Part shown: positions 22,349-40,524 of the stretch, piece by piece | Layout: each line of letters begins with the position of its first letter | Position numbering within the stretch: position 1 is the stretch's first letter | Source: a virus | Strand: one strand, 5' to 3' | IMG/VR virus record: IMGVR_UViG_3300020057_000001 | Span: 96,072 to 160,071 of that record | Length of the DNA stretch: 64,000 nucleotides | Notes under the pieces: generated by a model | The model's input: only the letters and a program-made list of their open reading frames with translations | Told to the model about the DNA's origin: nothing | Database searches by the model: none | Position numbers and translations under genes: made by a program

Positions 22349-22385
22349 AGCCTTAGAGCCCTAGTTCTCTAAGGCTTTTTCTTTT
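22349..22385 (+). terminator. Rho-independent terminator
   Basis: AGCCTTAGAG-N8-CTCTAAGGCT followed by a T-run. Confidence 0.75.
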
Positions 22386-22750: not shown

Positions 22751-22903
22751 ATGCTCGGCAAAAAGATCAAAGACAAAATGAATACATGTTGGGGTGGCTC
22801 TATGGAAAAAGCGGATGGCTGCGAGAAAGCGCCCAAGCTGGAAAAGTCCAAAGAAGAAAAAGCCCTCTTGCTAAAGTCTGTCGTTAAAAAATTAAAACTC
22901 TAA
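22751..22903 (+). CDS. 50-aa basic protein made largely of the KS/KA and KLK motifs of the downstream array
   Basis: MLGKKIKDKM...MEKA...LEKS...LLLKSVVKKLKL; AAGGA RBS. Confidence 0.55.
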   Translation: MLGKKIKDKMNTCWGGSMEKADGCEKAPKLEKSKEEKALLLKSVVKKLKL

Positions 22904-22904
22904 G

Positions 22905-25900
22905 GTGACCGTTGTGCAACCCACTCGCTTGTCTTCGCTGGTCCGTAAATTAAAAAATAAAGTGGTAGCGCGCAGGGAAAATACTTTACATCCTGACGTT
23001 CATGCACAACTCTGGTCGGAACCAGAGGCCGAAACGATGCAAAAGTCAGACAAGCTCCCACACTACCAAAAGTTTATGGGCACTCACCCTAAAGCTCAAG
23101 AAACAGCAAGCTGGGTGGATGATAATATAAGCCACCGAGGGTTGGCTGAATTTGGCATGAGGCAAGCCAAGACAAGACCAGAAGGGTTAGGCAACGAAGA
23201 AAAGTCTCAACTAAAGCACTTTAACGATTCCCTACACATGCCGGAAGTGAAAAAGGGCGCAGGAGAGTTGACGAAAGATCACACTTGGGAAAGTGGGATT
23301 GAAAAGTTAAACGCACATGAAGCGGCGTACACTGAAAAACATAAAAAAATAGCACCCTCGCTTGTGCCTTCGGAAGGCGAAAAACTCCTTGACTTAGGCG
23401 AAGGCGTCGGCCTTTATAATCTACCTCTTGATGGTGCGCGCAAGAACAAACATGAAGCAGTGGGCATGGGTCACTGCGCTACTGCACTTGAGGGTGGTGA
23501 TCTTTGGTCGATCCGCAAAGACCATGGCAACGGGATGGTGGAACCTATGGTTACCCTTTCTCACGCGGATGGGTACGTAGGTGAAGTGAAGGGAAAACAC
23601 AACTGGAAGCCTTCAGAAAAACACCACTCAGCTATTTTGAAAGTTTTGGCAAGTGACTTAGTAAAGGGTTTTGTTGGTGGCGGTTATGCGCCAGAAAGCA
23701 ATTTTAGCTTAAATGACGTAAAACCTGAATGGAAACAGAAGCTCACATCCGTTAAGCCTACGCTCATGCAAAAACCTTACATAGAAACGTTACCGCTACC
23801 ATTTGCGGACGGGTATAACCACGAGCCCGACGTCCCGACAATTGCAAAAATCAAAGACCCTGCAAAAATGCTTCGCCTCGCCCAAGCAAGCGAGCCCAAA
23901 TCCGCTGTTCACAATTACTCAGCCAAAAACCCCAACATTTCTCCCGAAGTTGCACAGCACTTAGCGCAAACAAACAACCCAGGCTCTAGGGTTCACGAAA
24001 ACTTAGCCAAAAACCCCAACCTCTCTCCAGAAGTTGCACATCATTTAGTCCAAACAAACAAGCCCAGATCCGGCGTTCACGTTCTCTTAGCCGAAAACCC
24101 CAACCTTTCTCCAGAAGCTGTGAAGCACTTAGCCCAAACAAACGAGCCCGATTCGCCCGTTCACGGAATCTTAGCCGAAAACCCCAACCTTTCTCCCGAA
24201 CTTGCGCAGCACTTAGCCCAAACAAACGAGCCCGATTACCCCATTCACAACAGCTTAGCCAAAAACCCCAACCTCTCTCCAGAAGTTGCACATCATTTAG
24301 CCCAAACAAACAAGCCCGATTCCGACGTTCACAAATACTTAGCCAAAAACCCCAACCTCCCACCAGAAGTTGCACAACATTTAGCCCAAACAAACAAGCC
24401 AGGGGCCTTCGTTCACGTACTCTTAGCCAAAAACCCCAACCTCTCTCCAGAACTCGCACATCATTTAGCCCAAACAGACAAGCCAGGGGCCTTCGTTCAC
24501 AACAGCTTAGCTCAAAACCCCAACCTCTCTCCAGAACTCGCACATCATTTAGCCCAAACAAACAAGCCCGATTCCTCCGTTCACCTTGCCTTAGCCAAAA
24601 ACCCCAACCTTTCTCCCGAACTTGCACATCATTTAGCCCAAGCAAGCGGACCCGCATCCGGCGTTCACCTTGCCTTAGCCAAAAACCCCAACCTTTCTCC
24701 AGAACTCGCACATCATTTAGCCCAAGCAAACGAGCCCGTATCCTCCGTTCACCTTCTCTTAGCCAAAAACCCCAACCTTTCTCCAGAAGCTGCGCAGCAT
24801 TTAGCCCAAACAAACAAGCCCGATTCCTCCATTCACGCATACTTAGCTGAAAACCCCAACCTTTCTCCAGAAGCTGCGCAGCATTTAGCCCAAACAAACA
24901 AGCCCGATTCCGACGTTCACAACAGCTTAGCCCAAAACCCCAAATACGCACATCTTGCGTTATCCGCACCACGCCCTCAACAAGCTACGCACATCCAAAA
25001 ACTTATCGGCATTCTCAACGACGAAAACGCTGATAGAGGTCTTCAACGTCAAGCCGCACAAGAAATTAAAACAAGAAGAGAAGAAGAACTGCAACACCGA
25101 CTGTCTGACAAAGGCGATATGCAAGACCTCTTAAATTTAGCGGAATCTTCAGACGACGACGTGTCTGAAAAAGCCACTAAAGAAATTCAGAGAAGAAACC
25201 TACAAAAATCAATGCGTAAGTCCGAGAGCAAGGCCAAAACAAGTGTAGTAGCTAAGTTAAAAGCCAAAATAACTACAAAACCAAAAGACGCTCCGGTTCC
25301 TCCCCACGAGGTCATTGATTCAGGCATTTTGACGCCTTTCCATCAAACGTTAATTATGCACGGATCAAAAGTCTCATTAAAAGAAGCACGCGTCGGGCAT
25401 TCAGAAGTAAACCCTAGCAGTAATAAGGAGCGGGCGGTGAATAAGGATCTTAAAAAGGGCGATATCGTTGGTGGAAACCCTGAAGCAAAAGAAAAACTAG
25501 CACTCACGAACGAAAACAGGGTGTCTTCGAGCCCCGCCGCGATTGGTGCATATAAAAAACCATTTCAATTTACACAGCGCGACGGGGCTAGTGGACGGCG
25601 CGTTAACGTACAAACCAGCAGTGGTAAAAATATCATGTCACATTTTGACCATGCGGCGCATCAAGACTTCAGCTCTGCGGATCACAAAGAAGCCGCCGTT
25701 GCCCACCAGAGACACCTTATTGAGTTAAAGGAGGGTCGACCGCACCCAGACCTTCTAAAGTTTCATCAAGACCAGTACAAAAACCATTGGCAGCAACACC
25801 AAGATCTAAAGAACCGGAGTAACACGATGTTAGGTAAGTCCTTAAAGGCAAAGTTTCTCAAAAAGGCTTCTCTTGACAAATCACAGACTTTAAGCCATTC

Positions 25901-26054
25901 TTCAGCGCCTAAGCTTTCCAAGTCCTCCACGCTGGGACAGAGAATCAAGGCTGCTCTGGCAAGTCCTGAGATGCCGACCTTTCCACGGAACCACCACTCC
26001 GAAGTGCCTCACCATGACCCCCGAGACGTAAAATATTTTGATATCGAGGAATAA
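22905..26054 (+). CDS. Array member 1: PcfJ-like N-terminal domain + 12.5 x 28-aa LRV-like helical repeats + KS-delimited C-terminal modules
   Basis: E..GMGHC...WSIRK...EPMVT...GEVKGKHN motif. Repeat LAKNPNLSPExAxHLAQTNxPxxxVHxx at ~23901-24942. Confidence 0.75.
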   Translation: MTVVQPTRLSSLVRKLKNKVVARRENTLHPDVHAQLWSEPEAETMQKSDKLPHYQKFMGTHPKAQETASWVDDNISHRGLAEFGMRQAKTRPEGLGNEEKSQLKHFNDSLHMPEVKKGAGELTKDHTWESGIEKLNAHEAAYTEKHKKIAPSLVPSEGEKLLDLGEGVGLYNLPLDGARKNKHEAVGMGHCATALEGGDLWSIRKDHGNGMVEPMVTLSHADGYVGEVKGKHNWKPSEKHHSAILKVLASDLVKGFVGGGYAPESNFSLNDVKPEWKQKLTSVKPTLMQKPYIETLPLPFADGYNHEPDVPTIAKIKDPAKMLRLAQASEPKSAVHNYSAKNPNISPEVAQHLAQTNNPGSRVHENLAKNPNLSPEVAHHLVQTNKPRSGVHVLLAENPNLSPEAVKHLAQTNEPDSPVHGILAENPNLSPELAQHLAQTNEPDYPIHNSLAKNPNLSPEVAHHLAQTNKPDSDVHKYLAKNPNLPPEVAQHLAQTNKPGAFVHVLLAKNPNLSPELAHHLAQTDKPGAFVHNSLAQNPNLSPELAHHLAQTNKPDSSVHLALAKNPNLSPELAHHLAQASGPASGVHLALAKNPNLSPELAHHLAQANEPVSSVHLLLAKNPNLSPEAAQHLAQTNKPDSSIHAYLAENPNLSPEAAQHLAQTNKPDSDVHNSLAQNPKYAHLALSAPRPQQATHIQKLIGILNDENADRGLQRQAAQEIKTRREEELQHRLSDKGDMQDLLNLAESSDDDVSEKATKEIQRRNLQKSMRKSESKAKTSVVAKLKAKITTKPKDAPVPPHEVIDSGILTPFHQTLIMHGSKVSLKEARVGHSEVNPSSNKERAVNKDLKKGDIVGGNPEAKEKLALTNENRVSSSPAAIGAYKKPFQFTQRDGASGRRVNVQTSSGKNIMSHFDHAAHQDFSSADHKEAAVAHQRHLIELKEGRPHPDLLKFHQDQYKNHWQQHQDLKNRSNTMLGKSLKAKFLKKASLDKSQTLSHSSAPKLSKSSTLGQRIKAALASPEMPTFPRNHHSEVPHHDPRDVKYFDIEE

Positions 26055-26056
26055 AA

Positions 26057-28564
26057 GTGGAAAAGTTAGCAAAAGCTGGGTTTACACAACTGAAACAGAT
26101 GTTTGCGGAAACCAACGATCACGACCACGTCGTAAAATGGGCTGCTGACAGCATCAAACCTAACGACATGCAGTCTTGGTACTTGCGCAACTATAAGCAA
26201 AATCCGGCTATTCACACAAAGGCCAACCAAGAAAAAATCGCACATTTTTCTGGAATGCATGGTCTTTCTGAGGATATCAAAAACGTTAAATTAGATAAAA
26301 ACGACACGTTAGAATCAGGTTTAGCGAAATACGATCAGGCTGAAAAAAAATGGCAATCCAGTAGTGGGAGCCGTTTTACTGCTCCAGAAGGTAAGAAGAT
26401 CGTTGACCTTGGTAACAACATGGGTTGGTACAATCTCAAAAAGCCTACGTCAGATGAAGAGGCTAGCTGCATGGGACATTGTGGAAATTATGGAAATCCT
26501 CACGAAAAAGACCAAATTTTTTCTTTGCGAAAAGAAGTAAAAGTTGGAAACAAGACCTATCACGAGCCTATGTCAACTGCCATTTACAATAAAGGTTGGC
26601 TGGGGGAAATGAAAGGTCGAGCAAATTCTCGTCCAGGTGCGAAGTTTCATGAACACTATGCGGCACTGTTGAAACACCCTAAAATCAAAGGGTTAATCGG
26701 GGCGGGGCATAAACCACACGAAAATTTTCATTTCGACGACCTAAGCCCAGAACTTCAACAGCAAGTCAAAACAGCAAACCCAAAGATGGTGGACTTAAGA
26801 AGTAATGCTTGGGACACAGCAACAAAACATAAAGCCACAGCGTCCGTTCCGAAAATTGAAAAGTATCAGAGCACTGTCAAAGACATTCACCGATCGACTG
26901 AACTGAAAGATCAATTGGATCAGGGACATCCAATGGACGCTCTTGACCCAAACGACTTAAGACTAGTCGTTGATCATCCAGCTTTTCAAAAAGGGCACCT
27001 TGACAAATTAGTAAAGGGTCTAGCGGATCAAAAAGGCATCAAGGATGTGTATTCAAAACTCCAAGCATATGGCGCTATTGAGAGATCCCCACATTTAAAC
27101 GACCAGCACATCGACCACTTAATCGATTCAGATGAAACGGCTAACACAGCTCAATTATTAAGAAAAAAACTCAACCAAAGCCACGTAGACAACATCGTTC
27201 AAAAAGCTCCTGCCATGGCAGCAGAACAGTTAAAAGACCACCGTCTGTTAAACCAAAGCCACATAACCCATATTGTTAAAGAATACCCCGGTAGAGCAGC
27301 CCTATATTTAAACAACCACCCCCTCTTAAACGCAACCCACATAGACCAAATTGCTCAAAAAGCACCCCACGCAGCAGCCGTACATTTAAAAGACCACCCC
27401 CTTCTCAACGCAAGCCACATAGACCACATTGTCCGACAAGAACCCAGAGAAGCAGCGAAACATTTAAAAGACCACCCCCTCTTAAACGCAAGCCACATAG
27501 ACCGTATTGCGCAAGACGAACCCTTCGCCGCAGCAAGACATTTAACCGACCACCCCGTCTTCAACGCAAGCCACATAGACCGTATTGTCCAACAAGACCC
27601 CGCTTCCGCCGCCGCAAATTTAAAAGACCACCCCCTCTTTAACCAAAGCCACCTAGACCAAATTGTTCAAGGCAACTCCGGCGCAGCAGCCGTACATTTA
27701 AAAGACCACCCCCTTCTCAACGCAAGCCACATAGACCGTATTGTTCAAAAAGAACCCGGCACAGCAGCCTACCATTTAAACAACCACCCCCTCTTCAACG
27801 CAAGCCACATAACCCAGCTTGCCCAAAAAGACCCCAACGCCGCAGCCCTATATTTAAATAATCACCGCCTCTTCAACCAAAGCCATATAGACCACATTGT
27901 TCAAGAGCACCCCAACGCAGCGCTAGAGTATTTAAGAAAACACCCCCTTCTCAACGTAAGCCACATAACCCATATTGCCCAAAAAGAACCCGGCGCAGCC
28001 GCCCAATATTTAAACGACCACCCTCTCTTCAACGCAAGCCATATAGACCACATTGTTCAACAAGACCCCTATAGAGCAGCTGGATTTTTAAACGACCACC
28101 CCCTCTTTAACCAAAGCCACATAACCCATATTGTTCAAGAAGCACCCCACATAGCAGCCGAATATTTAAAAGACCACCCCCTTCTCAACCAAAGCCATAT
28201 AGACCACATGGTTCAAGAAGCACCCTTCAGAGCAGCCGCATATTTAAAAGACCACCCCCTTCTCAACCAAAGCCATATAGACCACATTGTTCAAGAAGCA
28301 CCCCACATAGCAGCCGAATATTTAAAAGACCACCCCCTCTTTGCAGAAGCTATGAGACGCGCTAAAGCTAAAAAAGTACAGAAACCCGAAGCAACTGCTC
28401 CGCTAACCAAATCTGAGAAAAACTTAAAGAGCGTCGTTCAAAAATTGAAACGTAAGGCTACACCACAAACACCAGACACAGCGTTCGAAGCCCAAACCGC
28501 TAGGAAAAACCTTCTCAGTAGTATAGCATCCAAACTGAAGAAGATACCCGCTGGCCCAACTTGA
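26057..28564 (+). CDS. Array member 2: 375-aa conserved N-terminal region + 15 x 26-aa His-rich variable repeats
   Basis: Repeat HIDHIVQxxPxxAAxxLKDHPLLNxS at 27182-28351. Confidence 0.85.
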   Translation: MEKLAKAGFTQLKQMFAETNDHDHVVKWAADSIKPNDMQSWYLRNYKQNPAIHTKANQEKIAHFSGMHGLSEDIKNVKLDKNDTLESGLAKYDQAEKKWQSSSGSRFTAPEGKKIVDLGNNMGWYNLKKPTSDEEASCMGHCGNYGNPHEKDQIFSLRKEVKVGNKTYHEPMSTAIYNKGWLGEMKGRANSRPGAKFHEHYAALLKHPKIKGLIGAGHKPHENFHFDDLSPELQQQVKTANPKMVDLRSNAWDTATKHKATASVPKIEKYQSTVKDIHRSTELKDQLDQGHPMDALDPNDLRLVVDHPAFQKGHLDKLVKGLADQKGIKDVYSKLQAYGAIERSPHLNDQHIDHLIDSDETANTAQLLRKKLNQSHVDNIVQKAPAMAAEQLKDHRLLNQSHITHIVKEYPGRAALYLNNHPLLNATHIDQIAQKAPHAAAVHLKDHPLLNASHIDHIVRQEPREAAKHLKDHPLLNASHIDRIAQDEPFAAARHLTDHPVFNASHIDRIVQQDPASAAANLKDHPLFNQSHLDQIVQGNSGAAAVHLKDHPLLNASHIDRIVQKEPGTAAYHLNNHPLFNASHITQLAQKDPNAAALYLNNHRLFNQSHIDHIVQEHPNAALEYLRKHPLLNVSHITHIAQKEPGAAAQYLNDHPLFNASHIDHIVQQDPYRAAGFLNDHPLFNQSHITHIVQEAPHIAAEYLKDHPLLNQSHIDHMVQEAPFRAAAYLKDHPLLNQSHIDHIVQEAPHIAAEYLKDHPLFAEAMRRAKAKKVQKPEATAPLTKSEKNLKSVVQKLKRKATPQTPDTAFEAQTARKNLLSSIASKLKKIPAGPT

Positions 28565-28620
28565 ATAGGCTACTCAACCTTGACCCGAGACGTAAAATAT
28601 TTTGATATCGAGGAGTAAAA

Positions 28621-31600
28621 GTGGAAAAGTTAGCAAAAGCTGGGTTTACACAACTGAAACAGATGTTTGCAGATTCGGACGATCACGACCACGTCGTTAA
28701 GTGGGCTGCTGACAGCATCAAACCAAACGACATGCAGTCTTGGTACTTGCGAAATTACAAACAAAATCCGGCTATTCACACAACGGAAAACCAAGAAAAA
28801 ATTGCACATTTTTCGGGAATGCATGGTCTTTCCGAGGATATCAAAAACGTTAAGCTGGACAAGAACGACACGTTAGAATCAGGTTTAGCGAAATACGATC
28901 AGGCCGAGAAAAAATGGCAATCCAGTAGTGGGAGCCGTTTCACGGCTCCAGAAGGTAAGAAGATCGTTGAGCTTGGGAACGGTATGGGTTGGTACGATTT
29001 AAAGAAGCCGGTGTCAAGTGAAGAGGCTAACTGCATGGGCCATTGTGGAAATTCGGGAAATCCTCACGAAAAAGACCAAATTTTTTCTTTGCGAAAAGAA
29101 GTAAAAGTCGGAAATAAAACGTACCACGAGCCCATGTCAACTGCTATTTACAATAAGGGTTGGTTAGGCGAAATGAAAGGTCGAGCCAATTCTCGTCCAG
29201 GTGAAAAGTTTCATGAACACTACGCGGCACTCCTAAAGCACCCTAAAATCAAAGGGTTAATCGGTGCGGGGCATAAACCACAAGAAAATTTTCATTTCGA
29301 CGACTTGAGCCCAGAACTTCAACAACAAGTCAAAACAGCAAATCCGGCAATGGTGGACTTAAGAAGTAATGCTTGGGACACAGCAACAAAATACAAAGCC
29401 ACGGCGTCCGTTCCTAAAATTAAAAAATATCAGCATACTGTCAAAGACATTCACCGATCCACGGAACTGAAAGATCAATTGGATCAGGGACATCCAATGG
29501 ACGCGCTCAAGTCAAGCGACTTAAGACTAGTCGTTGACCATCCAGCTTTTCAAAAAGGACACCTTGACAAATTAGTAAAAGGTATAGCTAACCAAAAAGG
29601 CATCAAGGATGTGTATTCAAAACTCCAAGCCTACGGTGCTATTGAAAGATCTCCGCATTTAAACGACCAACACATCGACCACTTAATCGATTCAGATGAG
29701 ATCGCTAACACAGCGCAACTATTAAGAAAAAAACTCAACCAAAGCCACGTAGATAGCATTGTGCAAAAAGCTCCCGTCATGGCAGCAAAACAGTTAAAAG
29801 ACCACCGTCTGTTAAACCAAAGCCACGTAGACCACATTGTTCAAAAAGCCCCTGGCATGGCAGCGGAATATTTAAACGACCACCCCCTCTTCAACGCAAG
29901 CCACATAGACCACATTGCTCAAAAATACCCCTCCAAAGCAGCTGGATATTTAAACGACCACCCCCTCTTCAACCAAAGCCACCTAGACCATATTGTTCAA
30001 GAGTACCCCAACGCAGCCGAATATTTAAAAGACCACCCCCTATTCAACCAAAGCCACGTAGATAGCATTGTGCAAACAGACCCCGGCATGGCAGCAGAAC
30101 AGTTAAAAGACCACCGTCTCTTTAATCAAAGTCATATAGACCGTATTGCGCAAGAATCACCCTACTCAGCAGCAGAACAGTTAAAAGACCACCCCCTTCT
30201 CAACCAAAGCCACATAGACCACATTGTTCAAGAAAACCCCCGCGTAGCCGCCCAATATTTAAATAAGCACCTCCTCCTCAACCAAAGCCACATAGACCAC
30301 ATTGTTCAACAAGACCCCCGCTTAGCAGCCTCCCGTTTAAAAGACCACCCCCTTTTCAACCAAAGCCACATAACACATATTGTTCAACAAGAACCCAGCG
30401 AAGCAGCGGAACAGTTAAAAGACCACCCCCTTCTCAACCAAAGCCACATAGACCACATTGTTCAAGAAAACCCCCGCGTAGCCGCCCAATATTTAAATAA
30501 GCACCTCCTCCTCAACCAAAGCCACATAGACCATATTGTCCAAAAAGAACCCAGCAAAGCAGCCTACCGTTTAAAAGACCACCCACTCTTCAACGCAAGC
30601 CACGTAGATCACATTGTCCAAAACGTCCCCTATTCCGCAGTCGAGGCTTTACAAAACCACCCCCTCCTCAACCAAAGCCACATAGACCACCTTGTTCAAC
30701 AAGTACCCCACATAGCAGCCGAATATTTAAAAGACCACCCCCTCTTTGCAGAAGCTGTGAGACGAGCCGAAGCTAAAAAAGTACAGAAATCCGAAGCAAC
30801 TGCTCCGCTAACCAAATCTGAGAAAAACTTAAAAAGCGTCGTTCAAAAATTGAAACGTAAGGCTACACCGCAAAAGCCTTGGAACCCAGAATCATACGGG
30901 TATGACGACGGCTCCGACGATGTTTACAATGACATCGACGACGCGGTAGATCATCACAACCTATCCGCAAACCGTCGTATGGAAAGATATCAGGAAATAA
31001 ATCCGGAACACACAGAAAAAATGATGGACCCGAGTGAGTTAATTCCCTCTGCGCACCTACCTCAAACGTCAGGTTGGTTAAAGCAGCACCCGGAGCAAGA
31101 GTGGATCAATCGCTTGAAAGAGCAATTTCCAGATCGAGATTTCGCTCACACTTTAGACAAAAAGAATAAAAAAGCGTTATCGCCAGCCATCACCATCAAC
31201 GGTGAACTTGCGGACGGTTATGGACGAGCCCACCTTGCGCATGCCCTTGGTGAGCACTTACCGACGTATGATTATAAAAGAAAATTACAAAAATCCATCG
31301 TAGGCGTACCGCAAATGAAAAAATCCAACGACCTTGCCCAAGACCTTAAGAAACAGGGCGCAAAAGACCCCAAAGCCATACTTCAAACGCAAAAAGAAAA
31401 AGAAGACCTAAAGAAAGGCGACGTAGTAACTTTAGGCGCAAAAATCAAAGCAAAGATCAAAGCAAAAAAAGAAAGCTCTTCCACGGAAGCGTCAACGGTA
31501 AAACGGCTTTCCCCGGAAGAGCAATTGGCCAATAGAAAAAAACATCAGGCTGAGGCAAACAGCTCCGCAATGACCGACGTCTCTTCTCATAGGAGAGGAG

Positions 31601-33357
31601 CCTACGCCCCGCAGAATAGTGCAGCGGAACGCCTGAAGGAACGTGCTGAGACAGTTAAAAAGCTAAAAGACCAAAGCGACCATAAAGACCGCCTCGTTCA
31701 CATGATGGGCGAACAACACGGACCCGTAGGCGCTTCCGCAGCAAGCCATGTTTTTGAAGCAAACGCAGATCGTTATTCGTTATCGTTAAATCGTGACGAC
31801 ACCCGTGAAAAGGAACGCGTCGCAGGAAAAGCGAAGACCTATATTACGCATTACGGACAGACGCCCGAAGGGCACCACGTGTTTCTTCACCAGAACGCAG
31901 GATTAGCCCGTCTTATGGCAGTGCCTTCAGACGGGTCTGCTGTCAAGCATCTTGGGTCAATTCACCGCGCAACAGACGCAGTACGCGTACCTAATCCTAA
32001 ATACTATACTTCTGCGGAAGCAGCTCAAGCGGATCAAGCCGATTCGCTCGAACGTTACAAGCAGAGCCATCAAGATCCCAAAGGTAACGCTTTACGCGAA
32101 AAAGAATTGCGATCAACGAAACTTCTCTCAGATGCCATACCTTCGATGGCAAAGTACAAAGACGCGGGCGAATTCAATAAAAAGGACTACACGATTTCTA
32201 GGGGACCGCATAGTTGGGGATTCGAAATACGCAAAAAGGGCAATGATCGCGAATCGTTTAGATACCACGTACAAAAAGGAGTGCCGAAAGACCATGCAGA
32301 ACACAATAGCTTGGACGCGCAACCTCTAGTAATTACGCCCGCGTACACTAAGGATGAAGAGAACCACGGACAAGCGATGCGCTTCTTTCAACAGCATATG
32401 CAAGGACATTTTAAAGTGAAGAGCGCCTACGGTGACTTCAGTTTACAGCCAGAACAGAATCCTTCTTGGACGCCACAACCAGAAGCAGTACCCCCTCGTG
32501 GCGAAAAAGTGCCAAGTATGTTTGGTAAAAAGACGGAGCAACCTAAAAAGCCTAACCCCTTTTCAGTGGTTAAATCTCAGCGCCTCGCCAAAGGTGATGT
32601 AATAAATTTAGGCGCAAAAATCAAAGCGAAGATCAAAGAAAAAAAAGAAAGCGTCAAGCCAGGGAGCCCTGAGGCACGCCAAGCCACAATCGAAAAGTAC
32701 GGCCCCTCGATGGCGGATCTTTATGGCGCATTCGACAAGCACAAAGCGAAGATCGAGAAAAAGAAAGCTCCTGTCTCACGGGATGCGCAGATTGAGCAAG
32801 CTTTCAACCAGCAGAACGGCACACCAGATTTAGTAGATACCCCGCGACCCCCTATGCCTTTACATACCCCTCAAGAGACAGACGCAAGACACCTCCACGA
32901 TGTTCTTGTGAACGAGTACGATTACGACAGTAAGATACATAGACCGTCCGACGGCTATGAAGACGGAGACCTTGTCGAAGACTATGCAGCAATTCACTTG
33001 GGTAGCACACCGCAACACCGCAGCGAACAAGGGATACACAGACAAATTCCTTTTGCTCAATGGAAAGAACTTCACGAATCACCCGTCCACGAGCAGGGGT
33101 CAGACGCCAAAGATGCGCAAGCACCAATGGTTGAACGTCTTGCCTCGGATGCTATAGAGACCGCCGGAAGCCAAGGCTTTAGTCGTATCTTCCTGCATCC
33201 TGATTACAATTCTAAAGACTTTGCGGCTTTCAAATTTAAGCAGGCAGCCGACAAAGCCCCCAAGCCGGATTTGAGCCCTGAAGCCCAAACCGCTAGGAAA
33301 AACCTTCTGAGTAGTATAGCCTCCAAACTGAAGAAGAAACCCGATGGCCCAACTTAA
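28621..33357 (+). CDS. Array member 3: same N-terminal region + 13 repeats + ~800-aa modular insertion
   Basis: Repeats at 29746-30756; insertion ~30880-33267 within the shared C-terminal tail. Confidence 0.85.
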   Translation: MEKLAKAGFTQLKQMFADSDDHDHVVKWAADSIKPNDMQSWYLRNYKQNPAIHTTENQEKIAHFSGMHGLSEDIKNVKLDKNDTLESGLAKYDQAEKKWQSSSGSRFTAPEGKKIVELGNGMGWYDLKKPVSSEEANCMGHCGNSGNPHEKDQIFSLRKEVKVGNKTYHEPMSTAIYNKGWLGEMKGRANSRPGEKFHEHYAALLKHPKIKGLIGAGHKPQENFHFDDLSPELQQQVKTANPAMVDLRSNAWDTATKYKATASVPKIKKYQHTVKDIHRSTELKDQLDQGHPMDALKSSDLRLVVDHPAFQKGHLDKLVKGIANQKGIKDVYSKLQAYGAIERSPHLNDQHIDHLIDSDEIANTAQLLRKKLNQSHVDSIVQKAPVMAAKQLKDHRLLNQSHVDHIVQKAPGMAAEYLNDHPLFNASHIDHIAQKYPSKAAGYLNDHPLFNQSHLDHIVQEYPNAAEYLKDHPLFNQSHVDSIVQTDPGMAAEQLKDHRLFNQSHIDRIAQESPYSAAEQLKDHPLLNQSHIDHIVQENPRVAAQYLNKHLLLNQSHIDHIVQQDPRLAASRLKDHPLFNQSHITHIVQQEPSEAAEQLKDHPLLNQSHIDHIVQENPRVAAQYLNKHLLLNQSHIDHIVQKEPSKAAYRLKDHPLFNASHVDHIVQNVPYSAVEALQNHPLLNQSHIDHLVQQVPHIAAEYLKDHPLFAEAVRRAEAKKVQKSEATAPLTKSEKNLKSVVQKLKRKATPQKPWNPESYGYDDGSDDVYNDIDDAVDHHNLSANRRMERYQEINPEHTEKMMDPSELIPSAHLPQTSGWLKQHPEQEWINRLKEQFPDRDFAHTLDKKNKKALSPAITINGELADGYGRAHLAHALGEHLPTYDYKRKLQKSIVGVPQMKKSNDLAQDLKKQGAKDPKAILQTQKEKEDLKKGDVVTLGAKIKAKIKAKKESSSTEASTVKRLSPEEQLANRKKHQAEANSSAMTDVSSHRRGAYAPQNSAAERLKERAETVKKLKDQSDHKDRLVHMMGEQHGPVGASAASHVFEANADRYSLSLNRDDTREKERVAGKAKTYITHYGQTPEGHHVFLHQNAGLARLMAVPSDGSAVKHLGSIHRATDAVRVPNPKYYTSAEAAQADQADSLERYKQSHQDPKGNALREKELRSTKLLSDAIPSMAKYKDAGEFNKKDYTISRGPHSWGFEIRKKGNDRESFRYHVQKGVPKDHAEHNSLDAQPLVITPAYTKDEENHGQAMRFFQQHMQGHFKVKSAYGDFSLQPEQNPSWTPQPEAVPPRGEKVPSMFGKKTEQPKKPNPFSVVKSQRLAKGDVINLGAKIKAKIKEKKESVKPGSPEARQATIEKYGPSMADLYGAFDKHKAKIEKKKAPVSRDAQIEQAFNQQNGTPDLVDTPRPPMPLHTPQETDARHLHDVLVNEYDYDSKIHRPSDGYEDGDLVEDYAAIHLGSTPQHRSEQGIHRQIPFAQWKELHESPVHEQGSDAKDAQAPMVERLASDAIETAGSQGFSRIFLHPDYNSKDFAAFKFKQAADKAPKPDLSPEAQTARKNLLSSIASKLKKKPDGPT

Positions 33358-33426
33358 AAAGGTTGATAACAGGCTTCTCCACAATGACCCCCGAGACGTA
33401 AAATATTTTGATATCGAGGAGTAAAA

Positions 33427-35928
33427 GTGGAAAAGTTAGCAAAAGCCGGATTTAAACAACTGAAACAGATGTTTGCAGATTCGGACGATCACGACCACGT
33501 CGTTAAGTGGGCTGCTGACAGCATAAAGCCAAACGACATGCAGTCTTGGTACTTGCGCAACTATAAGCAAAACCCCACTATCCACACAAAAGCCAACCAA
33601 GAAAAAATTGCACATTTTTCAGGAATGCATGGGATTTCTGACGATATCAAAAACGTTAAGCTGGACAAGAACGACACGTTAGAATCCGGTTTAGCGAAAT
33701 ACGATCAGGCCGAGAAAAAGTGGCAATCGAGTAGTGGGAGCCGTTTCACGGATCCAGAAGGTAAAAAGATTGTCGACCTTGGGAACAACATGGGTTGGTA
33801 CAATCTCAAAAAGCCTACGTCAGATGAAGAGGCTAGCTGCATGGGACATTGTGGAAATTATGGAAATCCTCACGAAAAAGACCAAATTTTTTCTTTGCGA
33901 AAAGAAGTAAAAGTTGGAAACAAGACCTATCACGAGCCTATGTCAACTGCCATTTACAATAAAGGTTGGCTGGGGGAAATGAAAGGTCGAGCAAATTCTC
34001 GTCCAGGTGCGAAGTTTCATGAACACTATGCGGCACTGTTGAAACACCCTAAAATCAAAGGGTTAATCGGGGCGGGGCATAAACCACACGAAAATTTTCA
34101 TTTCGACGACCTAAGCCCAGAACTTCAACAGCAAGTCAAAACAGCAAACCCAAAGATGGTGGACTTAAGAAGTAATGCTTGGGACACAGCAACAAAACAT
34201 AAAGCCACAGCGTCCGTTCCGAAAATTGAAAAGTATCAGAGCACTGTCAAAGACATTCACCGATCGACTGAACTGAAAGATCAATTGGATCAGGGACATC
34301 CAATGGACGCTCTTGACCCAAACGACTTAAGACTAGTCGTTGATCATCCAGCTTTTCAAAAAGGGCACCTTGACAAATTAGTAAAGGGTCTAGCGGATCA
34401 AAAAGGCATCAAGGATGTGTATTCAAAACTCCAAGCATATGGCGCTATTGAGAGATCCCCACATTTAAACGACCAGCACATCGACCACTTAATCGATTCA
34501 GATGAAACGGCTAACACAGCTCAATTATTAAGAAAAAAACTCAACCAAAGCCACGTAGACAGGATTGTTCAAAAAGCTCCTGCCATGGCAGCAGAACAGT
34601 TAAAAGACCACCGTCTCTTCAACGCAAACCACCTAGACCACATTGTTCAACAAGAACCCCGCGCAGCAGCCCTATATTTAAACAACCACCCCCTCTTAAA
34701 CGCAACCCACATAGACCAAATTGTTCAAGAAAACCCCTACGCAGCAGTCAAATATTTAAAAGACCACCCACTCTTAAACGCAAATCACATAACACACCTT
34801 GTCCAAAAAGAACCCCGCAGCGTAGCACTATATTTAAACGACCACCCCCTCTTCAACGCAAGCCACATAGACCAAATTGTTCAAGAAAACCCCTACGCAG
34901 CAGTCAAATATTTAAAAGACCACCCACTCTTCAACGCAAACCACCTAGACCACATTGTTCAACAAGAACCCCGCGCAGCAGCCATACATTTAAAAGACCA
35001 CCCCCTGTTAAATCAAAGTCACGTAGACCACATTGTTCAAGAAGCACCCCACAGAGCAGCCGAATATTTAAAAGACCACCCACTCTTAAACGCAAAGCAC
35101 ATAGACCATCTTGTTCAAGGAGCACCCTTCCTTGCCGCGCGAGCGTTAAAAGACCACCCACTCTTCAACGCAAGCCACATATACCCAGCTATTCAAGAGA
35201 ACCCCTCTGAAGCACTCGACTATTTTAAAGACCACCCACTCTTAAACGCAAATCACATAACACACCTTGTCCAAAAAGAACCTGTTCGTGCGGCACGACA
35301 GTTAAAGGGCCACCCACTCTTAAACGCAAAGCACATAGACCATCTTGTTCAAGGAGCACCTGCCATAGCAGCGGAGTATTTAAACAACCACCCCCTTCTC
35401 AACGCAAGCCACATAGACCACATTGTTCAAGAAGCACCCCGCGCAGCAGCCATACATTTAAAAGACCACCCCCTCTTCAACGCAAGCCACATAGACCAAA
35501 TTGTTCAAAAATCACCTCACTACGCAGCCGCATATTTAAAAGACCACCCCCTTCTCAACGCAAGCCACATAACCCATATTGTCAAAAAAGAACCGTTCGA
35601 GGCAGTCCGAGAGTTAAAAGACCACCCCCTTCTCAACGCAAGCCACATAGACCATCTTGTTCAACAAGAACCCCACACCGCAGCCAAATATTTAAAAGAC
35701 CACCCCCTTTACGCAGAAGCTGTGAGACGAGCTGAAGCTAAAAAAGTACAGAAATCCGAAGCAACAGCTCCGTTAACCAAATCTGAGAAAACCTTAAAGA
35801 GCGTCGTTCAAAAATTGAAACGCAAGGTGACACCGCAAAAGCCCGACACAGCGCTCGAAGCCCAAACTGCTAGGAAAAACCTTCTGAGTAGTATAGCCTC
35901 CAAACTGAAGAAGCTACCCGATGCCTGA
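33427..35928 (+). CDS. Array member 4: same N-terminal region + 15 repeats
   Basis: Repeats at 34552-35721. Confidence 0.85.
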   Translation: MEKLAKAGFKQLKQMFADSDDHDHVVKWAADSIKPNDMQSWYLRNYKQNPTIHTKANQEKIAHFSGMHGISDDIKNVKLDKNDTLESGLAKYDQAEKKWQSSSGSRFTDPEGKKIVDLGNNMGWYNLKKPTSDEEASCMGHCGNYGNPHEKDQIFSLRKEVKVGNKTYHEPMSTAIYNKGWLGEMKGRANSRPGAKFHEHYAALLKHPKIKGLIGAGHKPHENFHFDDLSPELQQQVKTANPKMVDLRSNAWDTATKHKATASVPKIEKYQSTVKDIHRSTELKDQLDQGHPMDALDPNDLRLVVDHPAFQKGHLDKLVKGLADQKGIKDVYSKLQAYGAIERSPHLNDQHIDHLIDSDETANTAQLLRKKLNQSHVDRIVQKAPAMAAEQLKDHRLFNANHLDHIVQQEPRAAALYLNNHPLLNATHIDQIVQENPYAAVKYLKDHPLLNANHITHLVQKEPRSVALYLNDHPLFNASHIDQIVQENPYAAVKYLKDHPLFNANHLDHIVQQEPRAAAIHLKDHPLLNQSHVDHIVQEAPHRAAEYLKDHPLLNAKHIDHLVQGAPFLAARALKDHPLFNASHIYPAIQENPSEALDYFKDHPLLNANHITHLVQKEPVRAARQLKGHPLLNAKHIDHLVQGAPAIAAEYLNNHPLLNASHIDHIVQEAPRAAAIHLKDHPLFNASHIDQIVQKSPHYAAAYLKDHPLLNASHITHIVKKEPFEAVRELKDHPLLNASHIDHLVQQEPHTAAKYLKDHPLYAEAVRRAEAKKVQKSEATAPLTKSEKTLKSVVQKLKRKVTPQKPDTALEAQTARKNLLSSIASKLKKLPDA

Positions 35929-35986
35929 CTTGAACAACTTCCACCTTGACACGAGACGTAAAATATTTTGATATCGAGGAGTAAAA

Positions 35987-38701
35987 GTGGAAAAGTTAGC
36001 AAAAGCCGGGTTTACACAACTAAAACAGATGTTTGCAGATTCGGACGATCACGACCATGTCGTGAAATGGGCTGCCGATAGCATCAAACCTAACGACATG
36101 CAGTCTTGGTACTTGCGAAATTACAAACAAAATCCCGCTATCCACACAACTGACAACCAAGAAAAAATTGCACATTTTTCAGGAATGCACGGTCTTTCCG
36201 AGGACATCAAAAACGTTAAATTAGATAAAAACGACACGTTAGAATCCGGTTTAGCAAAATACGATCAGGCTGAAAAAAAATGGCAATCGAGTAGTGGGAG
36301 CCGTTTCACGGCTCCAGAAGGTAAAAAGATTGTCGACCTTGGTAACAACATGGGTTGGTACAATCTCAAAAAGCCTACGTCAGATGAAGAGTCTAGTTGT
36401 ATGGGGCATTGTGGAAATTATGGAAATCCTCACGAAAAAGACCAAATCCTTTCGTTAAGAAAAGAAGTAAAAGTCGGAAATAAAACCTATCACGAGCCCA
36501 TGTCAACTGCTATTTACAATAAAGGTTGGCTAGGCGAAATGAAAGGTCGAGCAAATTCTCGTCCAGGTGAGAAGTTGCATGAACACTATGCCGCTCTTTT
36601 AAAGCACCCTAAAATCAAAGGGTTAATTGGTGCAGGCCATAAACCCGAAGGAAATTTTCATTTCGACGACTTAAGCCCAGAACTTCAACAGCAAGTCAAA
36701 ACAGCAAATCCGGCAATGGTGGACTTAAGAAGTAATGCTTGGGATACAGCAACAAAACACAAAGCCACAGCGTCCGTGCCTAAAATTAAAAAATATCAGC
36801 ATACTGTCAAAGACATTCACCGATCCACGGAACTAAAAGATCAATTGGATCAGGGACATTCAATCGATGCGCTCAAGTCAAACGACTTAAGACTAGTCGT
36901 TGATCATCCAGCTTTTCAAAAAGGGCACCTTGACAAATTAGTAAAAGGTATAGCTAACCAAAAAGGCATCAAGGATGAATACTCAAAACTCCAAGCATAT
37001 GGTGCTATTGAAAGATCTCCGCATTTAAACGACCAACACATCGACCACTTAATCGATTCAGATGAGATCGCTAACACAGCTCAATTATTAAGAAAAAAAC
37101 TCAACCAAAGCCACGTACACAGGATTGTGGAAACAGACCCCGTCATGGCAGCAGAACAGTTAAAAGACCACCGTCTCTTCAACGCAAGCCACATAACCCA
37201 CATTGTTCAAGAATCACCCGGCGCAGCAGCCGTACATTTAAAAGACCACCCCCTTCTCAACGCAAGCCACATAGACCGTATTGTTCAAGAAAAACCCTAC
37301 AGAGCAGCAGAACAGTTAAAAGACCACCCCCTCTTTAATCAAAGTCACATAGACCACCTTGTTCAAAAAGACCCCCGCGCAGCAGCCGAATATTTAAACG
37401 ACCACCCCCTCTTTAATCAAAGCCACATAGACCATATTGCTCAAAAAACACCCTACGAAGCAGCCGTATATTTAAAAGACCACCCCCGTCTCAACGCAAG
37501 CCACATAGACCACATTGCTCAAAAAGCACCCCACGCAGCAGCCGAACATCTAAAAGACCACCCCCGTCTCAACGCAAACCACATAGACCAAATTGCCCAA
37601 CAAGAACCCTTCAGAGCAGCACAATATTTAGGCACCCACCCTCTCTTCAACGCAAGCCACATATTTTCTGCTATCCACCAAGCGCCCCGCGAGGCAGCCG
37701 ACTATTTAAAAGACCACCCCCTCTTCAACGCAAGCCACATAGACCATATTGTTCAAACATCTCCGAGAGATGCGGCCCGATTTTTAAAAAACCACCCCCT
37801 TCTCAACCAAAGCCACATAACCCACATTGTTCAAGAATCGCCCGCCACAGCAGCCGACTATTTAAAAGACCACCCCCTCTTTAATCAAAGCCACATAACC
37901 CACATTGTCCAAAAATCACCCGACGCAGCCTCCCGTTTAAAAGACCACCCCCTTTTCAACCAAAGCCACATAACACATATTGTTCAACAAGAACCCAGCG
38001 AAGCAGCGGAACAGTTAAAAGACCACCCCCTTCTCAACCAAAGCCACATAGACCAAATTGTTCACAGAAACCCCTACGCCGCAGCCGACTATTTAAGAAA
38101 ACACCCCCTCTTCAACGCAAGCCACATAGACCAAATTGTTCAAGAAAACCCCTACGCAGCAGTCAAATATTTAAAAGACCACCCACTCTTCAACGCAAAC
38201 CACCTAGACCACATTGTTCAACAAGAACCCCGCGCAGCAGCCTTACATTTAAAAAACCACCCCCTCTTCAACGCAAGCCACATAGACCACATTGTTCAAC
38301 AAGACCCCTCCAAAGCTGCCATATATTTAAACGACCACCCCCTTCTCAACGCAAGCCACATAGACCACATTGTTCAACAAGACCCCGGCGCAGCAGCCTT
38401 ACATTTAAAAAACCACCCCCTTCTCAACGCAAGCCACATAGACCACATTGTTCAACAAGACCCCTCCAAAGCTGCCATATATTTAAACGACCACCCCCTT
38501 TACGCAGAAGCTGTGAGACGAGCTGAAGCTAAAAAAGTGGAAAAGTCCGCAGCAACAGCTCCGTTAACCAAATCTGAGAAAAACTTAAAGAGCGTCGTTC
38601 AAAAATTGAAACGCAAAGTGACCCCACTAACACCACCCAAAGCCCAACCTGCTAGGAAAAACCTTCTCAGTAGTGTAGCCTTAAAACTAAGAGGAAAATA
38701 A
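35987..38701 (+). CDS. Array member 5: same N-terminal region + 18 repeats
   Basis: Repeats at 37112-38512. Confidence 0.85.
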   Translation: MEKLAKAGFTQLKQMFADSDDHDHVVKWAADSIKPNDMQSWYLRNYKQNPAIHTTDNQEKIAHFSGMHGLSEDIKNVKLDKNDTLESGLAKYDQAEKKWQSSSGSRFTAPEGKKIVDLGNNMGWYNLKKPTSDEESSCMGHCGNYGNPHEKDQILSLRKEVKVGNKTYHEPMSTAIYNKGWLGEMKGRANSRPGEKLHEHYAALLKHPKIKGLIGAGHKPEGNFHFDDLSPELQQQVKTANPAMVDLRSNAWDTATKHKATASVPKIKKYQHTVKDIHRSTELKDQLDQGHSIDALKSNDLRLVVDHPAFQKGHLDKLVKGIANQKGIKDEYSKLQAYGAIERSPHLNDQHIDHLIDSDEIANTAQLLRKKLNQSHVHRIVETDPVMAAEQLKDHRLFNASHITHIVQESPGAAAVHLKDHPLLNASHIDRIVQEKPYRAAEQLKDHPLFNQSHIDHLVQKDPRAAAEYLNDHPLFNQSHIDHIAQKTPYEAAVYLKDHPRLNASHIDHIAQKAPHAAAEHLKDHPRLNANHIDQIAQQEPFRAAQYLGTHPLFNASHIFSAIHQAPREAADYLKDHPLFNASHIDHIVQTSPRDAARFLKNHPLLNQSHITHIVQESPATAADYLKDHPLFNQSHITHIVQKSPDAASRLKDHPLFNQSHITHIVQQEPSEAAEQLKDHPLLNQSHIDQIVHRNPYAAADYLRKHPLFNASHIDQIVQENPYAAVKYLKDHPLFNANHLDHIVQQEPRAAALHLKNHPLFNASHIDHIVQQDPSKAAIYLNDHPLLNASHIDHIVQQDPGAAALHLKNHPLLNASHIDHIVQQDPSKAAIYLNDHPLYAEAVRRAEAKKVEKSAATAPLTKSEKNLKSVVQKLKRKVTPLTPPKAQPARKNLLSSVALKLRGK

Positions 38702-39130
38702 ATGACAACCCAACCTAAAATTGATTACTCCCCGATTAACATGATGGCACCCCCAAACTTTTACGCCGAAGTGCCGGAGTTCAACATCACACAGAATCAA
38801 GCAACCACCCTCTGGGTACAAGTGTCCCTCACGGACGCTCTTGGTACCCGTAGGCGAATACCCGCAGCGGGAGCCACATACAAGCTGAGGTTTCCGAGAG
38901 CCAGACAAGCGATCGTAGGGTCAGCTACTCAAGGCGCCGACCAAACGTTCGACGTCACCGGAACCCTTCTTTCGGATGATCGTTCTATGGCATCGTTTGC
39001 GCTCACCGCAGACCAAACGAAGCTCGTGTTTCCAGGAAACGTCCTTCTTGTTATCACGGAGGGTGTCAACGTGACCACAATCACTAAACCCCTCGTTCTG
39101 AAAAAACACTTTCCCTTGGGGCAATGTTAA
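38702..39130 (+). CDS. Hypothetical virion protein (beta-rich)
   Basis: Contiguous with the array and the neck gene. Confidence 0.55.
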   Translation: MTTQPKIDYSPINMMAPPNFYAEVPEFNITQNQATTLWVQVSLTDALGTRRRIPAAGATYKLRFPRARQAIVGSATQGADQTFDVTGTLLSDDRSMASFALTADQTKLVFPGNVLLVITEGVNVTTITKPLVLKKHFPLGQC

Positions 39131-39978
39131 TGACAAACTGGCAAAAAGCACAACAATACCCCGTATTCGCAGAAGAGGATGGACAAGAAACAGCCGTTTC
39201 ACGGTACCGTGCCTTCCCTACGATAGAAGACTTACGCGCAGTGGCGCTGTTTGGATTTAGCGTCTACGCCAACCCTGCGGTCTTAGAGCAGATCACTGAC
39301 GACTTCCTTTACAACGCCATTACCTCTGCCATGAACGAAATAGAGATGAAGGAAGGCATTACGATTACCCCTACTGAATACACTGAGCCCTACGACCTAT
39401 CGGAAGGCTCTGCGGACTACTTCAACCCCTTTAACGGCTACAAGCTTACAAAATGGCCCGCAACTCAACTACTCTCGCTGCAATACGTGTACCCGCATGC
39501 CACGTCGACAGACCCTACGCTGTCGTATGAAGTCCCCCCTCAGTGGATTTCGCTAAGAAGAAATAGAATTTCAGTTATACCCGGTAAAGGAAGCCCTGCT
39601 ATCACTCAAGGAGGGAGTGGCTCTCTTGCTGCGGGTGTCATGGGCAGATCGTTCAGCGCAAGTATCTACCGACCGTCGGCTTTACGCATTCGGTACATTG
39701 CTGGTTTTGACCCCTGCAAAGTACCTGCCTTACTTGTCGACATGATTCTCACTCTAGCGACTATACGGCTTTTAACTGATATTACCCCCGTACTGTTCCC
39801 CTACAGCGGAGTAAGCAACAGTATCGACGGCGTGAGTCAATCCGCACAAACACCTATCTTTCAATTTCTGCAAACACGTATCACAATGCTTGAAAAGAAG
39901 TACGTGCAGCAAGCCGCAGCCTTAAAAGGCGCGTTTGGTCGATTAATGAAAATGTCAATTTTGACTTCCGGTGGGTAA
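39124..39978 (+). CDS. Head-tail adaptor / neck protein (Twort-type)
   Basis: DDFLYNAI..A..EIE...GITITP...E.YD...KWP...LSL...PPQWI...IRYIAGF...SIDGVSQS pattern. Confidence 0.7.
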   Translation: MLMTNWQKAQQYPVFAEEDGQETAVSRYRAFPTIEDLRAVALFGFSVYANPAVLEQITDDFLYNAITSAMNEIEMKEGITITPTEYTEPYDLSEGSADYFNPFNGYKLTKWPATQLLSLQYVYPHATSTDPTLSYEVPPQWISLRRNRISVIPGKGSPAITQGGSGSLAAGVMGRSFSASIYRPSALRIRYIAGFDPCKVPALLVDMILTLATIRLLTDITPVLFPYSGVSNSIDGVSQSAQTPIFQFLQTRITMLEKKYVQQAAALKGAFGRLMKMSILTSGG

Positions 39979-40414: not shown

Positions 40415-40524
40415 TAAAATTTTTAACCTCCCGTTATGTCACCCCCTTCTCCAAACTTTAGCCAAAAGACGTGTAAAATAGTAGAGACAGTGTTTTACAC
40501 TCTTCCTTAAACTTGGAGAATACA

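Follow-up and report, generated by a model that had tools for sequence, protein, structure and literature searches.

Why does a phage carry five adjacent copies of one large gene beside its head genes, and what might their products do? This question is raised by a window of 64,000 nucleotides (nt), which spans bases 96072-160071 of the record of an uncultured phage (IMG/VR, IMGVR_UViG_3300020057_000001; complete, 160,071 bp, direct terminal repeats). Five adjacent plus-strand paralogues (members 1 to 5), recognized in a first-pass annotation made from the letters alone, were confirmed at window positions 22905-38701, where they take up about a tenth of the 160-kb genome (Table 1). In the present study, the proteins were found to combine an N-terminal domain (N-domain), which by profile and fold comparison is a divergent PcfJ-like branch, with a repeat solenoid whose units change mainly at a few fixed places. 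We lean, with slightly more belief than doubt, towards the reading that the array consists of tandem paralogues of the polyvalent effector type, which would be loaded into the head, released with the DNA and docked on differing targets by their solenoids.

Architecture of the paralogues and their repeat units

Members 2-5 begin with a shared N-terminal region of 375 amino acids (aa), the first repeat unit starting at residue 376 in each, and their N-domains are 93-98% identical. Member 1 carries a related domain (28% identity over 290 aa, E 1.4e-24) with the core motifs MGHC, S-x-R, EP-x-x-T, GE-x-KG-x-x-N-x-KP and GGGY-x-PE-x-NF. Behind the shared region lie 61 units in the numbers counted at first pass (15, 13, 15 and 18), spaced by 26 aa except for two units of 25 aa. 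The fixed framework with three variable residue pairs described there was borne out by the 59 full units, in which the entropy was 2.08-3.20 bits at positions 8, 9, 11, 12, 15 and 16 and 0-1.61 bits at all other positions, H1 and H20 being invariant. These six slots held 52 distinct combinations among the 59 units; they are polar or aromatic in character, E, Y, A, Q, K, R and H being the main residues in them.

The solenoid of member 1 is built from the 28-aa LRV-like units that had been proposed, with 12 regular units and one degenerate unit, and it scored 112.6 bits with Pfam LRV_2 (PF25591; cut-off 27) and 23.6 bits with LRV (PF01816; cut-off 21.6). Its units vary at positions 17, 19, 21, 24 and 25, which are the equivalent places around a V-H pair. 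In members 2-5, LRV and HEAT gave no match at E<=0.1, the 26-aa units lying below the Pfam thresholds. The register and period that these units have in common with the arrays of relatives nevertheless suggest that they are related to LRV/HEAT repeats. Like LRV, LRV_2 and HEAT repeats of the PBS-lyase type, they have a period within 26-28 aa and a two-helix unit, N/H-P-x-L-x-x-x-H-x-x-x-L, followed by a variable turn and V-R/A-A-x-x-(L/I)-A; unlike the Pfam LRV and HEAT models, the sub-threshold units of members 2-5 (HIDHIVQ..P..AA..LKDHPLLN) have the invariant H1 and H20. Each array of these members holds 37-56 histidines (11-12%), at the invariant positions 1 and 20 and commonly at position 4; these are likely structural, like those of the ankyrin TPLH motif, the alternatives being metal or pH sensing.

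An AlphaFold model was available for the solenoid of member 2 (residues 271-835), in which the repeats form a confident alpha-solenoid (predicted local distance difference test, pLDDT, about 96). Each modelled unit consists of helix A (10 aa; positions 25, 26 and 1-8), a break at positions 9-10 (Pro10), helix B (7 aa; positions 10-16) and a loop of 8 aa. The earlier proposal that i, i+3, i+7 spacing places all pairs on one helix face did not hold, as in the model positions 8-9 close helix A, and positions 11-16 belong to the separate short helix B. On helix B, slots 11, 12, 15 and 16 are spaced i, i+1, i+4, i+5 and lie opposite the conserved A13, A14 and L17, and positions 8-9 adjoin them; in the model, the six slots thus likely form a continuous exposed stripe. 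Foldseek searches with the solenoid returned only generic HEAT/ARM/importin-type and designed solenoids, and the top PDB fold matches included designed armadillo and importin-alpha proteins. The combination of a rigid framework with a few diverse, predicted-exposed positions per unit is also that of DARPins, designed armadillo proteins, TALE and VLR proteins. Unlike the fixed-framework binders DARPins, TALE and VLR, the array proteins show no programmed or somatic diversification and no small reusable code, and binding is here only inferred.

Moreover, the design was not confined to this phage. When nine arrays of other phages were placed in one register, the greatest variation fell at the turn before the V-R/A-A pair and at the two residues after it; because arrays from different phages vary most at the same places, the fixed framework with variable slots is a trait of the family. 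A 26-aa period follows the N-domain in at least 20 viral loci, and LRV was matched by 7 of 52 diverse viral relatives (best E 1.5e-40). At one locus (L033:2-2848), 26-aa arrays flank the domain on both sides (period-26 match 0.66 N-terminal, 0.64 C-terminal).

The common C-terminal tail claimed for members 2-5 is present, and that of member 3 is interrupted by a 798-aa insertion which had been missed. The tails are very basic, with isoelectric points (pI) of 10.5-11.6, and contain a basic amphipathic motif, L-K/S-S-V/I-V/A-x-K-L-K-x-K, that occurs in the 160-kb genome only in the five array proteins; in member 1 a tail-like form (LSSLVRKLKNK) stands near the start, at residues 9-19. This family-specific motif may be a packaging or DNA-binding signal. 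A further C-terminal copy is encoded by a 50-aa open reading frame (ORF) just upstream of member 1, which is possibly a relic of a sixth copy or else a small tail-only gene. The insertion in member 3, here called cargo, twice contains the linker KGDV(V/I)-x-LGAKIKAKIK (nt 31414 and 32590), and it had no Pfam match, no homologue of near its length and no PDB sequence match. A ParB/Srx reading of the cargo was unsupported, ParB_N (PF02195) giving no match at E<=10 in the genome.

The N-terminal domain and its relatives

The N-domain received no name from Pfam, NCBIfam or PHROGs, matched none of the Pfam LPD families, and its profile matched no sequence in the PDB. It is a conserved globular domain. 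In an alignment of 12 homologues, H63, E135, G-H-C, S-x-R, P171, T174, G-E-x-K-G-x-x-N-x-x-P, H198, G215, F224 and D228 were invariant, and the core motifs, including GGGY-x-x-x-NF, remained invariant or nearly so in the 52 diverse viral members. These features suggest that the N-domain is probably an enzyme.

The first-pass annotation had called the domain PcfJ-like. Remote homology was found by profile-profile and fold comparison, the part of the claim that stood, and the Pfam PcfJ model gave no match, also among the 52 relatives at E<=1e-4. With hhalign, 87 family members aligned to 24 true PF14284 proteins with a probability of 75.7% and E 2.4e-5 over 69 columns, the PcfJ motifs L..EG..M.HCV, P-x-x-AT-L-x-I and N corresponding to L....C..EG.AMGHCGN, P-H-L-T-F-I and N-x-KP. 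In addition, Foldseek against BFVD gave more than 12 matches to phage proteins annotated as 'PcfJ-like protein' (E 1e-5 to 1e-2). The N-domain resembles PcfJ (PF14284; pCF10, Herelleviridae and other phages) in the motif order EG-x-x-M-x-HC ... G..I ... P-x-x-(A/L)T ... N and in its occurrence on mobile elements; unlike PcfJ, this branch has an N-terminal helical bundle and, as additional invariant motifs, S-x-R, GEMKGR-x-N-x-KP and GGGY-x-PE-x-NF.

The AlphaFold model of residues 1-270 (pLDDT 86.5) consists of this helical bundle followed by an alpha/beta core. PDB fold searches with Foldseek and VIA-align placed GNAT/HAT1/MYST, GCN5 and ESCO1 proteins on top, with E 1.7e-3 or worse and Z 4-5.7. 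The order of secondary structure fits the GNAT core (beta1-alpha-beta2-beta3-beta4-alpha3-beta5), the fold matches themselves being weak, and the model is consistent with the N-domain possibly having a GNAT-like fold.

A profile search of 1.84 billion representatives found 2,728 N-domain clusters at E<=1e-3. In IMG/VR, an alignment-based scan found 163 relatives with the N-domain, many on contigs of 100-560 kb, and a peptide-pattern scan with a single protein found none. Among cultured phages, only Salicola phage SCTP-2 carries the domain (gene 31, 28% identity); among 185,579 species genomes, it occurred only in five metagenome-assembled genomes (MAGs) of Verrucomicrobiota, four of them Opitutia/Opitutaceae. 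The known members thus place the family mostly in large uncultured phages, and its occurrence in the Verrucomicrobiota MAGs may be a host hint or prophage cargo. The Verrucomicrobiota copies (L008-L012, L095-L097) are repeat-free proteins of about 585 aa from a cluster of 72 members.

The relatives are diverse in architecture. Besides LRV, LRV_2 and HEAT arrays, the domains fused to them include ART-PolyVal, GNAT, NUDIX, nucleoside deoxyribosyltransferase-like, 2H-ligase, nucleotidyltransferase and PI3/PI4-kinase-like domains, in proteins of up to 3,104 aa; at one locus (L063), two copies of the PcfJ-like domain share a protein with four ART-PolyVal stretches, Nuc_deoxyri_tr2 and GNAT. Another viral protein (L085:7288-12753; 1822 aa) has three copies of the domain, and the adjacent gene has one.

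No paper on the function of PcfJ was found by literature search. In pCF10 (NC_006827, L094 10874-12984), the PcfJ gene overlaps a gene of the AcrIIA9 family of Cas9 inhibitors by 10 nt on the same strand and has an ArdC-like gene nearby, which gives the founding PcfJ an anti-defence neighbourhood. Furthermore, PcfJ-like domains have been described upstream of regions diversified by diversity-generating retroelements (DGRs) in bacteria of the candidate phyla radiation (CPR) (PMC5758913), an arrangement that likewise couples a constant PcfJ module to a diversified binder.

Growth of the repertoire by duplication and exchange

Of the 1125 nt that encode the N-domain region, 40-111 differ among members 2-5, and most of these differences are synonymous. 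Each of these members is preceded by a conserved flank of about 40 nt, which is a relic of the C-terminal coding sequence of member 1 (RDVKYFDIEE-stop) and now carries GAGGAG-TAAAA-GTG; the relic therefore defines the duplication unit and, judged by these motifs, now supplies the ribosome-binding site. Within the arrays, the median difference between units is 20 of 78 nt; three pairs of units show no difference at all, and exact blocks of 125-141 nt are common within and between arrays. Block duplication and exchange therefore occur.

Substitutions were concentrated in the slots. With all unit pairs pooled (Nei-Gojobori), the six slots had a ratio of nonsynonymous to synonymous change (dN/dS) of 2.0 (bootstrap 1.5-2.7), compared with 0.41 for the framework; when the count was restricted to 29 nearest pairs that are independent of one another, the corresponding proportions (pN/pS) gave 1.06 and 0.41. 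The values of 1.06 to 2.0 are thus not well below 1, and positive selection is not proven by them.

For comparison with a second sample, an independent contig of 7373 bp (L092) from another JGI sample (3300020596) was set against positions 26010-33380. It contains an in-frame form of the relic described above, and the arrays of members 2 and 3 were identical in it. No RVT_1 match, and so no reverse transcriptase, was found in the complete 160-kb genome. A DGR or other programmed hypermutation was rejected on these two grounds, which therefore describe an evolved repertoire of paralogues and not active hypervariation. Of the diversified binder library proposed at first pass, the slots that change at or above the synonymous rate remain, and a hypermutation device does not. 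These comparisons of sequence showed three sources of the repertoire, namely tandem duplication of the gene, the copying and exchange of repeat blocks, and substitutions concentrated in the slots, with no programmed mutator.

Genome setting and candidate roles of the array

The plus strand reads, in order, dNMP (deoxynucleoside monophosphate) kinase, ribonucleotide reductase, a scaffold-like gene, a hairpin, the five array genes, a 142-aa gene, a 284-aa gene, a capsid-like gene and an HNH homing endonuclease, with baseplate-like genes farther along. For the 284-aa protein, the PHROG matches were phrog_772 (E 1.2e-15) and a head-tail adaptor, phrog_442 (E 1.7e-4), and the capsid-like protein has 22% identity to the major capsid protein of Myxococcus phage Mx1 over 96% of the query. 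Megablast against a phage collection gave no close DNA relative of this phage. The HNH/homing-endonuclease gene (42174-43700; phrog_3339, E 2.8e-85) lies directly 3' of the capsid-like gene, and homologues of it lie near the family gene in three other loci (L021, L024 and L027).

This setting was compared with that of relatives. In the closest one (L013, 61% identity), a scaffold homologue is followed by a member 2-type gene, a member 1-type gene and homologues of the 142-aa and 284-aa genes, so that the homologue of the scaffold-like gene is again upstream of array genes. At another locus (L007), one family gene precedes the 142-aa and 284-aa homologues; at two more (L006 and L072), one family gene precedes the 284-aa homologue and the capsid-like gene lies on its other side. 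Two adjacent copies were found in five other of 79 viral loci and five copies in none. The locus is thus not invariant among relatives, which have one or two copies where this phage has five, and gene order indicates that it is conserved but plastic in copy number. Of the flanking labels 'scaffold' and 'capsid' given at first pass, the head-block position is kept in relatives, and the labels themselves rest on weak matches.

The array genes are probably transcribed together with the head genes, because no plus-strand terminator-like site was found within the repeat arrays or between the array genes in a search through 39978, the sole such site inside the array being a weak 5-pair hairpin at 32499-32514 in the member 3 insertion. 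A scan for sigma-70-type promoters gave fewer sites than in shuffled sequence, and no inference on promoters was drawn from it.

Table 1. Features of the array and its surroundings, in window positions (N-domain, core, array and tail coordinates in nt)
Feature	Position	Strand	Basis or remark
Scaffold-like gene, upstream of array	21476-22324	+	Weak: phrog_15087 head scaffolding protein, E 2.4e-4
Terminator-like hairpin 3' of scaffold-like gene	22349-22376	+	10-pair stem with T-run
50-aa ORF	22751-22903	+	C-terminal copy of family basic tail motif (LLKSVVKKLKL); translation
Member 1, 1049 aa	22905-26054	+	Tail-like motif, divergent PcfJ-like domain, LRV_2 array, basic C-terminal region of about 300 aa
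Member 1 PcfJ-like core, about aa 137-330	23313-23894	+	Alignment; E 1.4e-24 to member 2
Member 1 array, 12 x 28 aa (NPNLSPE...)	23928-24935	+	Pfam LRV_2, E 8.2e-33
Conserved 5' flank, about 40 nt	26017-26056, 28581-28620, 33387-33426, 35947-35986	+	Before members 2-5
Member 2, 835 aa, 15 units	26057-28564	+	N-domain 26057-26866, degenerate solenoid start 26867-27181, basic tail 28352-28561
778-nt run identical in members 2 and 4	26414-27191 = 33784-34561	+	Gene conversion or collapsed assembly path
Member 2 array, 15 x 26 aa	27182-28351	+	AlphaFold (AF2) pLDDT about 96
Member 3, 1578 aa, 13 units	28621-33357	+	N-domain 28621-29430; tail split by insertion
Member 3 array, 13 units, one of 25 aa	29746-30756	+	Internal exact duplication of 125 nt
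Member 3 insertion (cargo), 798 aa	30880-33273	+	Within the shared tail; no homologue or family match
Member 4, 833 aa, 15 units	33427-35928	+	N-domain 33427-34236, tail 35722-35925
Member 4 array, 15 x 26 aa	34552-35721	+	141-nt exact block in common with member 5
Member 5, 904 aa, 18 units	35987-38701	+	N-domain 35987-36796, tail 38513-38698
Member 5 array, 18 units, one of 25 aa	37112-38512	+	Unit tables
Two conserved downstream partners (142 aa, 284 aa)	38702-39978	+	tblastn synteny
Major-capsid-like gene	40513-42063	+	phrog_752, E 8.7e-10

The nearest described class is that of the polyvalent proteins (Iyer, Burroughs, Anand, de Souza and Aravind 2017, PMC5512222), which are large and multidomain, have their genes close to those of the virion, and are predicted to enter the host together with the DNA by injection. 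The array proteins resemble this class in that relatives of their N-domain are fused to ART-PolyVal, GNAT, nucleotidyltransferase, NUDIX and 2H domains, and in that they are encoded beside virion genes, between scaffold-like and adaptor- or capsid-like genes. They differ from it in that four of the five have one globular domain and a solenoid, member 3 adding an uncharacterised cargo, and in that no tandem array of five paralogues is described in PMC5512222, which also makes no mention of HEAT, LRV or PcfJ. The opinion at first pass that no described system matches the locus was therefore too strong, the polyvalent concept covering the class though not this family, and the five genes are best placed, as an undescribed family arrangement that uses a known type of repeat, among the phage effectors of the polyvalent or packaged kind. 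Known head-delivered proteins were also compared: T4 internal proteins and Alt, and the inner-body and ejection-protein paralogues of phiKZ and SPN3US, are encoded in head modules, packaged and ejected, and some are enzymes, whereas the array proteins are known from their genes alone and have no sequence or fold relation to those of T4, phiKZ or SPN3US. Literature searches on LRV or HEAT repeats in phage virions returned nothing relevant.

In the mechanism that we propose, the array genes would be transcribed together with the head genes, and their products would be packaged in the head and enter the cell along with the DNA. The solenoid surface would then dock each copy of the N-domain on a different host or competitor protein, and the five paralogues, one of them also bringing the 798-aa cargo, would therefore cover several targets. 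The link to injection comes from the relatives of the N-domain that sit in polyvalent proteins, the class predicted to be injected (PMC5512222), and by this analogy packaging and ejection may be expected of the array proteins as well. The idea of a binder repertoire is plausible but unproven.

Several observations weigh against this polyvalent-type reading. As to the domain, its likeness to GNAT is weak (Z below 6), the Pfam PcfJ model gave no match in the proteins (E<=0.1) or the six-frame genome (E<=1), and single-sequence hhalign with pCF10 PcfJ reached a probability of 1%. As to delivery, no MuF or other known virion-targeting domain was detected in the array proteins, neither a capsid-targeting sequence at the N terminus nor a protease site was identified in them, and in a genome-wide search the tail motif was absent from the scaffold-like and head proteins, so that a prohead link was not borne out. 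As to the surfaces, the exposure of the slots is predicted from helix geometry and residue type, the slot pN/pS of 1.06 is the value of unconstrained drift, and the identity of two arrays between samples means that no ongoing diversification is visible. Finally, short reads cannot link across the 778-nt run that is identical in members 2 and 4, which leaves the linkage of these members and the gene order ambiguous.

Of the other explanations, the one that survives best, although we think it unlikely, is that the array encodes bulk internal proteins of the head (inner-body, filler or scaffold-like), whose solenoids serve as rods and whose slots vary by neutral drift. The place of the array within the head-gene block, the slot pN/pS in independent nearest pairs and the basic tails, which could bind packaged DNA, are all consistent with this explanation, and a pattern of framework and variable positions, found in every array of the family, is expected of any solenoid. 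Rods of this kind, however, do not account for the enzyme-like invariant polar residues of the N-domain across 2,728 clusters or for the presence of the domain in multi-enzyme polyvalent proteins of relatives; moreover, the slot residues are not random but strongly biased to E, Y, Q, K, R and H, and the pooled dN/dS of 2.0 is above neutrality.

Less probable again is the explanation that the proteins are unpackaged enzymes of host takeover or counter-defence, which act in the cytoplasm and are encoded among late genes by chance. Such enzymes would be in keeping with the position of the pCF10 PcfJ gene among establishment and anti-defence genes, with the failure to detect a known capsid-targeting domain and with the loose linkage to the capsid gene, the capsid-like gene lying on the other side in L006 and L072. 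Chance placement is at odds with the adjacency to the scaffold-like, 142-aa and 284-aa genes, which is kept in several lineages, and an anti-defence protein that is co-transcribed late and left unpackaged would come too late to protect the incoming DNA.

It is very improbable that the locus is a short-read assembly artefact in which one or two real genes were inflated by mis-joined repeats. The run identical in members 2 and 4 would permit such an error, and the assemblers resolved the locus differently. The contig L092 is circularly permuted, starting and ending at the same point in unit 8 of member 3, and its middle gene is a mosaic in which member 2 and a member 4-like 5' part are joined to the member 2 array across the 778-nt identical stretch; this contig shows either an assembly-graph cycle or a real recombinant. 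It nevertheless reproduces without mismatch the whole member 2 array, the first eight units of member 3 and the rest of member 3 with its cargo, and it includes the junction between members 2 and 3 and that from member 3 to a member 4-type start. Because the arrays and junctions are independently reproduced, the paralogues do not collapse to one gene. An artefact is also contradicted by the nucleotide differences among the N-domains, which are mostly synonymous, by those between the units of the arrays, and by the relative L013, which likewise has two family genes side by side.

Nucleic acid was named at first pass as a possible target; the notion that the solenoids read it like TALE or PPR proteins, one unit per base through the slot residues, can draw on the modular units with position-specific variable residues and on the weak similarity of the arrays to phrog_14131 (E 3.7e-7), a family annotated as 'DNA binding protein', but it is likewise very improbable because nearly every unit has its own slot combination and no small alphabet is reused, and it is further opposed by the neutral to acidic arrays (pI 6.2-6.7 in members 2-5), by fold matches to protein-binding HEAT/ARM solenoids and by a Pfam search of the proteins that found no TALE or PPR family match.

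The polyvalent-type reading can also be given a bolder form, which we regard as improbable, namely that the array is a head-delivered set in which one PcfJ-like enzyme is presented on five positively selected solenoid surfaces aimed at host defence or housekeeping proteins. If this were true, the array would be a natural, evolvable 'DARPin-enzyme' library that parallels, with repeats in place of DGRs, the diversified PcfJ-like proteins of CPR bacteria, and the PcfJ domain, which is widespread in plasmids and phages, would at last gain a function.

In conclusion, if the slots merely drift, the present analysis still gives a clean description of a large unnamed family of phage proteins; if binding partners exist, the 26-aa unit with its six slots would be a ready-made natural scaffold for binder engineering. 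The comparisons point to a divergent PcfJ-like branch that regularly occurs together with LRV/HEAT solenoids and with polyvalent-protein enzymes and has a conserved place in the head block. The five-copy array appears as an extreme case of this partnership, and it suggests the idea that phages may aim one effector domain at more than one target by means of interchangeable repeat surfaces.

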